From Pseudomonas phage phi9_PA9: 64,000 nt of DNA. Below the pieces are notes generated by a model. It had not been told where the DNA came from, searched no databases, and worked only from the letters and a program-made list of their open reading frames with translations. A program made the translations under genes and the position numbers. Below, piece by piece: positions 15,264 to 17,211 of this stretch (position 1 is the first letter of the stretch; each line of letters starts with the position of its first letter). The DNA is taken from sequence record PQ093904.1; one strand, written 5' to 3'.

Positions 15264-17211
15264 ATGGGTCTTTATGCCAAAGTTGTTGATCATGATGAAG
15301 TACATGATCAATTTACGGGTAAACGTATTTATGCCAATGATTACAATACGAGTAACTCAGATGAGAAAGAAGAATTTGATAGGCATTTCTATTCTCATTT
15401 CCAAGATTCAGAAGCAATTGAAAGTAGCGTAAGTTGTGATTGTCGAGCAATCGAAGACGCACATAAACTCGGAGTAATCTGTGATATTTGTAATACTCCA
15501 GTTGTCAATACTTCTAGCCGCCCTATCGAACCATCAATGTGGGTTCGTACACCAAAACATGTACGTAGTCTAATTAACCCACGTTTAATCATTATGCTAA
15601 CTGGATATCTAGTAACTAAAGAATTCGATTTCTTAGCATATCTAACCGATACTTCTTATCGATACGATGTAGAATCCATTGCCTCTAAAGAAACACGCAG
15701 GAAAGTAGATAGACTACTGCATCGAGGATTTGAAAGAGGATTAAATCACTTCATTGATAACTTCAATGAGATCTTCCAATTCCTACTAGATGCAAATATT
15801 ATCTCTAATAATAAATCCGAATTCGCTCAATTCATTGCTCAGAATAAAGATAAGCTATTCCCTAAATATTTACCAGTTCCTTCTAAACTCTGTTTCGTAG
15901 CAGAATCAACTACATCTGGTACTTACTTAGATAAACCAATTGAAGCAGCAATTGACGCTACCTTAACCTTCGCTAGTATTGATGCATCGTCTGTACCACT
16001 TAGCCCTATTAAAGCTCAGAATAGGACTATGCGAGGACTAAGACTATATGGCCAGTTCTACGAGATCTACGCAAAATCACGAATTGCTCAAAAGCCTGGT
16101 CTTGCTCGGCGTCACATGTTTGGTGCTCGTCTCAACGCTACGGCGCGTGCAGTAATCACTTCTATTAGTGACCCGCATGATTATGATGAATTACATATCC
16201 CTTGGGGAGTAGGTTGTCAATTATTAAAGTATCATCTAACTAACAAGTTAAAAGCTAAGTTTAACATGACAACTCGTGAAGCATTCTCATTTGTATATGA
16301 GAATGTACTTCAATATAACCAAATCATCGCTGATCTATTTAAAGAGTTAATTGCAGAGGCTGCACCATATAAAGGAATGGGTTGCACTTTTCACCGAAAC
16401 CCGACCCTTCAACGTGGATCTACTCAACAATTCTTTATTACTAAAGTAAAAGATGACATTAATGATAATTCAATCAGCATGTCAGTATTATGCCTTAAAG
16501 CGCCTAATCGGACAAGTAACTAACCAAATAAGGTAAAAACAATGGAACAAAACGGAGTAGTGTCCGTCTTTGATCCGGCTTCATTTAAAATTGAATATGA
16601 AGTGCTTGATAAATACCTTATTAAGTTAATCAAGTCTAGTTCCCCCAGTGAGTAATCATTGGGATGAGTTCTCTCTAATTGCTGGGATATCCTGTTAAAC
16701 TAATCTACCACTGCGAGTCGAAAGACAAAGCCAAGGTTTGAAAAAGATTAGGTAGGGCCAATCAGCAGCCAAGCTCCGTAACATTCCATTTAGGAATAGG
16801 AGAAGGTTCAACGACTATTACGGTATCAGGTGCACCGGTCCTAGAAATAGGATGTAGGGTCAAGTGACTCGAAATGGGAGACACCCCACTCCGAAAGGAA
16901 GGGTGAAGATATAGTCTGGTCTGCATGGTAACATGCAGCAGGTGGTAATTATACTACCGGGTATGGATTAACGACCCATACTGAACATAACGGCGGATTT
17001 TGACGGCGATCAATTGAATCTTACATTAATGCCTGATGTGTATTTAACTAAAGCAACTGAACGCATTGCTCCACATACATGGGTTCTATCTATTGATGAA
17101 CCACATGAAATCTCAGGTAACCTTGAATTACAGGGTCCTGTTGTAGAAACAATTATTAACTGGGCACATGAGAAGTATTTACCACCATTAGAAGAGTGGT
17201 TGAAGTCGTAA
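15264..17211 (+). CDS. Non-virion RNA polymerase beta' subunit, N-terminal fragment, interrupted by a group I intron (exons 15264-16508 and 16993-17211)
   Basis: N-terminal Zn finger C-x-C...CDIC; HRNPTLQRGSTQQF matches beta' NRQPTLHRLGIQAF; exon 1 ends ...LKAPN and exon 2 begins ADFDGDQLNLTLMPD, restoring the catalytic NADFDGD motif. Confidence 0.8.
16509..16992 (+). other. Group I self-splicing intron (no homing endonuclease ORF) within the beta' NADFDGD motif
   Basis: Contains P7-like strands ...CGACTAT... and AAGATATAGTCTGG (the G-binding-site signature AAGATATAGTC, as in the Tetrahymena intron); 5' exon ends in U (AAT), intron ends in G (..CTGAACATAACG); splicing restores the reading frame. 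Confidence 0.75.

Follow-up and report, generated by a model that had tools for sequence, protein, structure and literature searches.

An endonuclease-deleted copy of the phiKZ gp55/gp56 group I intron in the catalytic NADFDGD motif of a jumbo-phage RNA polymerase gene

An intron at the polymerase active site

The DNA of Pseudomonas phage phi9_PA9 analysed here (64,000 nucleotides of record PQ093904.1, referred to below as the window) belongs to a phiKZ-like Pseudomonas jumbo phage and carries a group I intron, probably of the IA type and 484 nt in length (16509..16992), that splits the NADFDGD motif between its Asn and Ala codons in the beta'-N gene of the non-virion RNA polymerase (nvRNAP). 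We consider it highly probable that this intron is self-splicing and that it represents the phiKZ gp55/gp56 intron with the endonuclease deleted. The intron is real, but it is already known from phiKZ gp55/gp56, and what the window adds is an endonuclease-deleted copy of it.

All of the features described below lie on the plus strand. Exon 1 (15264..16508, from the ORF list) comprises codons 1-415 of the beta'-N gene, a homologue of phiKZ gene 55, and ends in LKAPN with the codon AAU; its protein is 98-100% identical to gp55 of phiKZ and kmuB and is colinear with residues 21-435 of PDB 7OGP_A. Exon 2 (16993..17211, codons 416-487), a homologue of PHIKZ056.1, starts with ADFDGDQLNL, which contains the catalytic Asp triad. 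Removal of the 484 nt at 16509-16992 joins AAT|GCG in frame (sequence check) and thereby LKAPN to ADFDGDQ in the beta'-N subunit, the in-frame product being a protein of 487 aa (...KAPNADFDGDQLNL...) whose predicted spliced junction is spanned by the peptide APNADFDGDQLNLTLMPDVYLTK. The predicted ligated DNA junction reads GCGCCTAAT|GCGGATTTT, its phiKZ counterpart being GCGCCTAAT|GCTGATTTTGAC. N-A-D is restored in one register only, that with U16508 as the end of exon 1 and G16992 as the end of the intron. A preliminary description of this DNA had already proposed a 5' exon ending in U, an intron ending in G and the in-frame restoration of K-A-P-N-A-D-F-D-G-D-Q, all of which are seen at these coordinates.

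When unspliced, the exon-1 frame runs past ...SVLCLKAPN through four intron codons to a stop at 16521-16523 (RTSN*), giving a product of 419 aa with the C-terminus ...KAPNRTSN and a calculated mass of 47.9 kDa, versus 55.65 kDa for the spliced beta'-N protein. The preliminary description had the next ORF start within the motif at ADFDGD, which is mistaken: although stop codons are absent from the exon-2 frame once past an in-frame TAA at 16969, its first canonical start, TTG 17014, comes only 3' of ADFDGDQ. Because of this TAA and the position of this start codon, exon 2 is not translatable alone; to judge from the sequence, the catalytic subunit requires the splicing of 16509-16992.

Structure of the ribozyme

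The group I features of the intron exceed chance by far. The Rfam Intron_gpI covariance model (RF00028), the use of which had been proposed along with the intron, matches 16618-16938 with 80.4 bits (E=8e-19) at a gathering cutoff of 50 bits, and this match and the in-frame junction together uphold the original identification of 16509-16992 as a group I intron splitting the beta' NADFDGD motif. The MFE z-score of the intron is -3.9. Among eight related introns, 96.9% of the cells in P2-P9.2 are paired, as against 32-41% when slid, compensatory (both-side) changes occur in 32 of 59 pairs, as against 5-8 when slid, and none of 500 shuffles equals the covariation score. Pairing of P3, P4, P6, P7 and P8 in the same eight introns amounts to 87.5-100%, and P3, P6 and P8 show compensatory changes. 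The helices were drawn from RNAalifold, pair counts, the MFE fold and the Rfam alignment. A hairpin placed by RNAalifold at alignment columns 293-303 was discarded as an artefact of the ignored P7 pseudoknot, and P7 was put in before pairs were counted.

From P2 to the 3' splice site the fold can be followed helix by helix. P2 (16644..16663, RNAalifold) is the hairpin CCCAGUGA-GUAA-UCAUUGGG, with compensatory changes in 7 of 7 pairs. The 5' strand of P3 (16670..16675) is 100% paired with its 3' strand (16876..16881, pair counts), with both-side changes in 5 of 6 pairs. P4 (16680-16685 with 16762-16767), which is invariant and 100% paired, encloses P5 and a long P5 extension within 16680..16767; P5 comes from the Rfam alignment, and the extension (~16691-16757), common to the site-C introns, comes from the MFE fold only. 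P6/P6a (16768..16807) shows compensatory changes in 4 of 7 pairs. The 5' strand of P7 (A-c-GACUAU, 16811..16818) and its partner at 16911-16917, which the Rfam alignment and pair counts place within AAGAUAUAGUCUGG, are invariant and 100% paired in the eight introns; the P7 strands picked out in the preliminary description, CGACTAT and AAGATATAGTCTGG, are present at 16812-16818 and 16906-16919, respectively. G16813-C16916 is the predicted guanosine-binding pair, for which G264-C311 of Tetrahymena served as the model. P7 is followed by P7.1/P7.1a/P7.2-type hairpins within 16821..16870 (16821-16837, 16838-16853 and 16857-16870, MFE fold), the last with covariation in 3 of 5 pairs, and beyond the 3' strand of P3 by P8 (16882..16905), with compensatory changes in 5 of 8 pairs. 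P9 (16921..16938, pair counts and MFE fold) is the GC-rich hairpin noticed earlier near the 3' end; it has GCAUG/CAUGC in the window versus CUAGC/GCUAG in phiKZ, 6B and PS119XW. P9.1 (16941-16958) and P9.2 (16960-16982) occupy 16941..16982 in the MFE fold, and P9.2 has compensatory changes in 5 of 7 pairs. The sequence ends with the terminal guanosine (omega-G, 16992) at the 3' splice site. A candidate P9.0, paired by hand, would join AC 16990-16991 to GU 16919-16920; it is GU/AC in the A, B and beta-gene introns versus AC/GU in the site-C intron.

The proposed P1 consists of a 5' strand at 16506..16513 (exon AAU, the splice site and intron C-GGAC) and a 3' strand, the putative internal guide sequence GUCU-A-GUU, at 16634..16641, which lies 2 nt 5' of P2. 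In duplexfold AAU pairs with GUU and GGAC with GUCU across a C.A mismatch (dG -4.5), and a U.G wobble (U16508.G16639) falls at the cleavage site. The guide adjoins P2 and covaries with the exon (GAAAU/GUUUC in the site-A intron, GGU/GCC in the beta-gene intron), and this covariation spans four insertion sites, that of the site-C intron included. The exon share of P1 is 3 bp only, and for the phiKZ copy duplexfold favours another weak pairing over the P1 model. C16509, at intron position +1, is an extra base that is absent from 10 of 10 relatives examined. A search by hand found no convincing P10 pairing for this intron, and P10 appears to be essentially absent. Two other candidates for the guide strand were dropped: AUAAGG (16530-16535), near the 5' splice site and 5' of the ORF remnant, would pair with an A.A mismatch at its centre and without a U.G wobble, and is more plausibly a Shine-Dalgarno sequence for the endonuclease ORF, and GUUA (16625-16628) makes 4 bp with the exon but leaves a 15-nt J1/2 unlike that of the sister introns.

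The intron is probably of the IA type and is closely related to the T4 td-like phage introns. Its nucleotide identity to td introns is ~72-73% across the P7-P9.2 third (query 340-482); candidates for the IA-type extra helices P7.1/P7.2 are the three MFE hairpins between 16821 and 16870, one of them with covariation support. The T4-type td intron, which lies in a different host gene, belongs to subgroup IA2, and the window intron probably resembles it in having additional IA-type hairpins that separate P7 from P3'. The td endonuclease, I-TevI, is a GIY-YIG enzyme with its ORF in P6, whereas the ORF of introns of the window type lies in the P1 loop and specifies an HNH enzyme.

The phiKZ orthologue and the lost endonuclease

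Phage phiKZ carries this intron at the identical site; its copy contains the gene for the HNH endonuclease gp56, and its exon 2 goes under the annotation PHIKZ056.1. The two introns have in common the gene, the KAPN|ADFDGD insertion point, the flanks and the start and stop regions of the ORF, and their ribozyme cores are 92-96% identical (92.5-96.5%); by these marks the window intron and the phiKZ gp55/gp56/gp56.1 intron are orthologous. They differ in length (1372 nt in phiKZ versus 484 nt), the window intron having lost 896 nt from the body of the endonuclease ORF; the extra C at +1 is a further difference, and P9-P9.2 of the window is of the PA7 (MZ444140) type, not the phiKZ type. In blastn comparisons, window positions 15000-16596 and 16602-17199 match phiKZ positions 501-2098 and 2995-3589, placing the deletion junction, where the 896 nt of phiKZ (gene 56 body) are missing, at 16596..16602.

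The preliminary description was correct in stating that no homing endonuclease ORF is present in the intron and in noticing an ORF of 37 codons (plus stop), which it placed at 16541 and which has the coordinates 16542-16655. Alignment to phiKZ gp56 (334 aa as translated) identifies this ORF as a remnant of the HNH homing endonuclease gene, composed of the first 18 aa of gp56, two junction residues (YE) and the last 17 aa. No Pfam domain is left in the 37 aa, while phiKZ gp56 has HNH_3 and NUMOD1/NUMOD4. Since the ORF joins the N-terminus of gp56 directly to its C-terminus, the intron would be better described as "endonuclease-deleted" than as "endonuclease-less". The remnant occupies the P1 loop and reaches at its 3' end into P1/P2; this overlap with ribozyme strands is probably the reason that the 3' end of the ORF has been kept.

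The preliminary description implied that an intron in the beta' NADFDGD motif would be new to the phiKZ group, an implication that does not survive the comparison with phiKZ. The phiKZ intron was predicted in the genome paper of Mesyanzhinov et al. 2002, as that paper is cited in PMC10914365 and PMC11512511, and the structure paper numbers the catalytic 417-DFDGD-421 within gp55 (PMC8287921). Native phiKZ gp55 is a protein of 56 kDa (PMC4666361). Chain A of PDB 7OGP, the phiKZ nvRNAP structure ("PHIKZ055...PHIKZ056.1"), has exactly the spliced junction given above and is colinear with our product across it at ~99% identity, and it is this spliced form that was deposited as gp55 in 7OGP, 7OGR, 8QUE and 9RJS; these chains come from recombinant constructs and thus tell which protein the field accepts as mature, but do not independently prove that splicing takes place. 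The spliced sequences are simply used by Yakunina 2015 and de Martin Garrido 2021, in which introns and splicing go unmentioned. At the RNA level, direct support for splicing is surprisingly weak in phiKZ and phiKZ-like phages: in one long-read RNA-seq study of phiKZ, spliced reads were not seen.

As a discovery the intron carries little weight, given that the intron, its NADFDGD position and the spliced protein have already been documented for phiKZ and that ORF-less copies are in GenBank. Its practical value lies in annotation: public Phikzvirus records, like any annotation of the present genome, split gene 55 into two or three unrelated CDSs that miss the catalytic motif.

Splicing and its alternatives

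In the mechanism that we propose, the pre-mRNA would fold into the P1-P9.2 core, the guide GUCU-A-GUU would bind exon AAU plus intron (C)GGAC and offer U16508 in a U.G wobble, and an exogenous guanosine bound in P7 would attack after U16508. G16992 would then move into the G site, the 3'-OH of exon 1 would attack after G16992, and ligation of AAU|GCG would yield a single 487-aa, 55.7-kDa subunit with the Mg-binding Asp triad. An internal deletion of ~0.9 kb has removed the HNH/NUMOD homing endonuclease gp56 and left the 37-codon fusion of its ends in the P1 loop. The intron can no longer home by itself. It probably persists because introns are seldom lost precisely and the phage cannot do without the gene, and its presence would still abolish the endonuclease target site.

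Splicing might occur in vivo and yet not be autonomous, in that a phage or host protein cofactor or the translation of exon 1 is needed and the reaction is conditional and inefficient. The weak P1 with its 3 exon bp, the lack of P10 and the extra C at +1 are in keeping with such a dependence, as are the phiKZ long reads without spliced molecules and the translation dependence of T4 intron splicing in vivo (Sandegren and Sjoberg 2007, as cited in PMC10914365). We nevertheless think it improbable, given a complete core near to self-splicing td-type introns (~72% identity in the 3' third), catalytic-core helices that are all intact and conserved, and a potential maturase ORF that is dispensable, being missing from about a dozen phages. 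Less probable still is a gene split without splicing, in which the 419-aa exon-1 product would assemble in trans with a separate small exon-2 protein, as the two separate CDSs of public annotations, the jumbo-phage RNAP subunits that are split elsewhere (PMC7598289) and the phiKZ long reads might suggest, but in which ADFDGD, 3' of the stop at 16969 and 5' of the first exon-2 start, would go untranslated, native phiKZ gp55 would be expected at 48 kDa and not 56 kDa, and neither the high-scoring, covariation-supported ribozyme in the intervening 484 nt nor the one continuous protein of intron-less relatives would be accounted for.

Introns of gene 55 in Phikzvirus relatives

The KAPN|ADFDGD site is occupied in most Phikzvirus records, and ORF-less copies of the intron exist in about a dozen public Phikzvirus genomes, among them kmuB, KEN19, 30-1, Wadjak 1, Churi and SL2; the records of these ORF-less alleles have no intron annotation. 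The exact deletion junction of the window and its 37-aa remnant recur in kmuB, KEN19 and 30-1, whereas Churi and Wadjak 1 have another junction, a deletion between GAATGG direct repeats that leaves a 21-aa remnant. The gene-55 architecture of the window, with this site alone occupied, recurs in full in Wadjak 1 and 30-1; in kmuB and Churi a further intron lies 108 nt upstream. No intron occupies KAPN|ADFDGD in PhiPA3, PA1C, phiHQ, 201phi2-1, Psa21, Phabio, PA7 (NC_042060) and PS119XW; in PhiPA3 (gene 054) and other relatives the naturally intron-less gene encodes a single continuous protein that is colinear with the spliced product.

Taken together, the introns of the relatives lie at three alternative sites in a 130-nt section of gene 55, and their ORF deletions have two different junctions. 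It is conceivable, although we rate the idea as rather unlikely, that this ~130-nt catalytic-loop stretch is a three-site hotspot (HRN|PTL, KAPN|ADFDGD and NADFDGD|QLNL), each site having its related ribozyme with an I-HmuI-like HNH endonuclease. The ORFs would have been lost repeatedly, to judge by the at least two independent deletion junctions at KAPN|ADFDGD; the differing occupancy would not be neutral debris but would reflect interference competition between co-infecting phages, and ORF-less introns would be kept as cheap immunity alleles without a cleavage site. The analogy is drawn from PhiPA3, for which interference competition between phages has been demonstrated with the intact endonuclease of the gp210 intron (PMC11620839). 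That intron, which Birkholz et al. 2024 (PMC11620839) describe from the beta gene of the virion RNAP, is likewise of group I and likewise interrupts a jumbo-phage gene for a multisubunit RNAP at codons of the catalytic site; it differs from the window intron in carrying an intact HNH endonuclease and in belonging to the virion polymerase, at a different subunit and site. We found no paper describing the three-site intron/ORF polymorphism of gene 55, which could suit the study of the homing cycle and of phage-phage competition around an active site.

A second intron, in the beta gene

The preliminary description had also mentioned a phiKZ intron in the nvRNAP beta gene (gp71/gp73). This is correct (gp71/gp72/gp73), and its ORF-less counterpart in the window is a related group I intron of 313 nt (30813..31125; Rfam, 81.1 bits) in the homologue of phiKZ gp71/gp73. 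The phiKZ intron, which encodes the HNH protein gp72, resembles the gene-55 intron in its ribozyme, its 3' end (GAACAUAACG), its P4/P7 and the position of its ORF in the P1 loop; it differs in gene and site (FHGG|KGV) and is without the P5 extension. Public records present the same annotation problem for the beta gene, at 30.8 kb in the window, as for gene 55. A splice after AAU (FHGGN|KGV) was rejected, as the resulting Asn is absent from PDB 7OGP_C and a U.G wobble forms only after GGU. The intron splices ...FHGG|KGV..., in accord with the FHGG-KGV of PDB 7OGP_C, with the predicted DNA junction GGTGGT|AAAGGT and a P1 of GGU|AAUU with AAUUGCC (dG -7.3) that includes the U.G wobble.

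The intron in gene 55

The window belongs to the genus Phikzvirus of Pseudomonas aeruginosa jumbo phages, and the closest public genome by megablast is that of vB_PaeM_kmuB (~98% identity). The intron interrupts the window's homologue of phiKZ gene 55; the product of that gene is the N-terminal beta'-like subunit of the non-virion RNA polymerase (nvRNAP). In the ORF listing, the 419-codon ORF at 15264-16523 reads through ...SVLCLKAPN into four extra codons (RTSN*). Removal of the 484 nt at 16509-16992 fuses AAT|GCG in frame, in the only register that yields N-A-D, and gives a predicted product of 487 aa containing ...LKAPNADFDGDQLNLTLMPD....

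U is the last base of the 5' exon and G that of the intron; the two P7 strands occupy 16812-16818 and 16906-16919 and a GC hairpin 16921-16938, all in line with a preliminary description of the region. The group I intron that it proposed as splitting the beta' NADFDGD motif is real and was rightly interpreted: in the covariance-model search that it had called for, Rfam Intron_gpI matches 16618-16938 at 80.4 bits (E=8e-19; gathering score 50). A second Intron_gpI match in the window, at 30845-31071, scores 81.1 bits.

This is the known gp55/gp56 intron of phiKZ in a degenerate form, and such forms are already in public genomes. The phiKZ RefSeq order is gp55 (1263 nt), gp56 annotated as 'HNH endonuclease' (1005 nt) and PHIKZ056.1 (186 nt); with the spliced window protein as tblastn query, phiKZ exon 1 stops at KAPN and exon 2 opens with ADFDGD. 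The insertion point is identical in the two phages, whereas the intron is 1372 nt long in phiKZ and 484 nt in the window.

Loss of the endonuclease ORF

The window aligns with phiKZ in two blocks (15000-16596 and 16602-17199), between which phiKZ has 896 nt that are missing from the window. The 37-codon ORF at 16542-16655 consists of MEQNGVVSVFDPASFKIE, the first 18 residues of gp56, then YE, then VLDKYLIKLIKSSSPSE, the last 17. The domains of gp56 are HNH_3, NUMOD1 and NUMOD4, none of which was detected in a domain search on the 37-codon remnant. The intron, first described as endonuclease-less, does lack an endonuclease and has only this ORF, but is better termed endonuclease-deleted, since the ORF is the fused ends of gp56.

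The deletion junction of the window (16590-16605, leaving the in-frame 37-aa remnant) is identical in kmuB, KEN19 and 30-1. Churi and Wadjak 1 have another, ...KKEWGA*, with a 21-aa remnant, which is the product expected of recombination between the GAATGG direct repeats flanking the phiKZ ORF body. With two different junctions among the ORF-less copies, at least two losses of the endonuclease ORF are probable. Judged by BLAST span, ORF-less copies exist in about a dozen phages and ORF-containing copies in more than 20 (five and three, respectively, were checked directly); the overall gene-55 architecture of Wadjak 1 and 30-1 is the same as that of the window. The P1/P2 strands of the ribozyme run into the final 17 codons of gp56, an overlap that probably explains why these codons were retained in every deletion.

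Alternative intron sites

Among relatives, introns are found at three alternative positions in gene 55, all within ~130 nt. Site B (KAPN|ADFDGD) is occupied in the window, phiKZ and most Phikzvirus records; site A (HRN|PTLQRG) lies 108 nt upstream, within the conserved HRNPTL motif, and site C (NADFDGD|QLNL) 18 nt downstream. The site A intron is 305 nt and ORF-less in kmuB (locus sequence L002, 1902-2206) and 1194 nt with HNH in Churi (L003, 1903-3096). At site C, the intron of PA7 (NC_042060; L004, 3319-4842) has a 345-aa HNH/NUMOD/I-HmuI-like ORF in its 3' part, and that of PS119XW, genus Pawinskivirus, is 362 nt and ORF-less (L007, 1816-2177); site B is empty in both phages. Site A is empty in the window (16398-16400), where the Asn codon is AAC as opposed to AAT in the intron-bearing phages. 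All of these introns exceed the Rfam gathering score and all three ORFs belong to the HNH_3 family. A literature search of partial coverage found no description of this three-site intron/ORF polymorphism, which might offer a model of the homing cycle.

Ribozyme fold

Eight related introns were aligned: four from site B, two from site A, one from site C and the window intron in the nvRNAP beta gene. RNAalifold recovered P2, P3, P4, P6, a P7.2-type hairpin, P8, P9 and P9.2, and P7 was added as a pseudoknot before pairs were counted. Standard pairs fill 96.9% of cells in the proposed structure and 32-41% with the partners slid, both sides change in 32 of 59 pairs as against 5-8, and the observed covariation score was matched in none of 500 shuffles; P4 and P7 are invariant in the alignment. 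By hand inspection, a two-base P9.0 covaries (GU/AC in the window, AC/GU in site C introns), and no convincing P10 pairing was found for the window intron. Over its 3' third the intron shares ~72% identity with T4-type td introns, and the modelled P7-to-P3' hairpins would be consistent with subgroup IA.

With the ORF remnant sitting in its loop, P1 is not readable from the Rfam match and was assigned by comparison with sister introns, in which a guide sequence 2-3 nt ahead of P2 covaries with the exon: GUUUC with exon end GAAAU at site A, GCC with GGU in the beta gene and, in the P2-lacking intron of site C, GUCUCC with GGAGAU; a U.G wobble marks the splice site in each. Exon AAU of the window, together with intron C-GGAC (16506-16513), pairs with GUCU-A-GUU (16634-16641) through a U16508.G16639 wobble, a model that duplexfold returns exactly (dG -4.5). 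No part of the fold model is weaker than P1, whose exon portion is only 3 bp and which duplexfold did not reproduce for the phiKZ copy. The window has an extra C at 16509, where the intron begins (AAT|C GGACAA); all ten relatives examined lack it. Under the P1 model this base opposes A16638, otherwise bulged, in a 1x1 A.C mismatch, and it may reflect either genuine polymorphism or an error of sequencing. This extra base, the weak P1 and an ONT-cappable-seq study of phiKZ that saw no sign of splicing (PMC10914365) would favor an intron spliced non-autonomously, with a protein cofactor or exon 1 translation required, a reading that we consider improbable. RNA-level evidence of splicing is thin across the phiKZ-type phages.

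The spliced product

PDB 7OGP chain A (also 7OGR, 8QUE, 9RJS), named 'PHIKZ055 ... PHIKZ056.1', is one 508-residue chain, ...LCLKAPNADFDGDQLNL..., colinear with the predicted spliced window product. The structure paper (PMC8287921) assigns catalytic 417-DFDGD-421 to gp55, which has these residues after splicing only. In native nvRNAP from infected cells gp55 is 56 kDa (PMC4666361); the calculated masses are 55.65 kDa for the spliced protein and 47.9 kDa for the unspliced ORF. A split gene that functions without splicing is scarcely credible given that native mass, the continuous gene of relatives that lack the intron, PhiPA3 among them (gene 054, 488 aa), and an exon 2 frame in which a TAA at 16969 and a first canonical start (TTG) at 17014, past ADFDGDQ, would leave the Mg-binding triad wholly untranslated.

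Two transcriptomics papers (PMC10914365 and PMC11512511) trace the prediction of group I introns carrying endonucleases gp56, gp72 and gp179 to the genome paper on phiKZ of 2002, and for introns in gp55 and gp180 both refer to Ceyssens 2014. The preliminary impression that a beta' NADFDGD intron was absent from the phiKZ literature was therefore mistaken, as the 7OGP chain and the gp55 DFDGD numbering also attest, and part of the value left to the observation is that of an annotation correction.

The beta-gene intron

The second group I intron, ORF-less, lies at 30813-31125 in the nvRNAP beta gene, the homologue of phiKZ gp71/gp73, and retains a remnant mini-ORF, MDVLKLPA*, preceded by a strong Shine-Dalgarno sequence. 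Its predicted splice point is after GGT at 30812, because the 7OGP_C sequence reads FHGG-KGV at the junction; splicing after the AAT ahead of the stop codon of the annotated-style ORF is ruled out by the same sequence. Its P1 is GGU|AAUU / AAUUGCC, with a U.G wobble.

Sequences downstream of gene 55

Directly 3' of the gene 55 stop codon, a GC-rich hairpin (GCCCCUAC...GUAGGGGC) with UUUAUUU behind it (17222-17256) looks like an intrinsic terminator. A 62-aa ORF (17352-17540), together with the flank upstream of it (window 17283-17540), matches the PHIKZ058.1 region, whose place is after gp58 in phiKZ and between exon 2 of gene 55 and gp57 in the window. This looks like the translocation of a small module; Wadjak 1 and kmuB have an ORF of equal size at that position and apparently share the placement.
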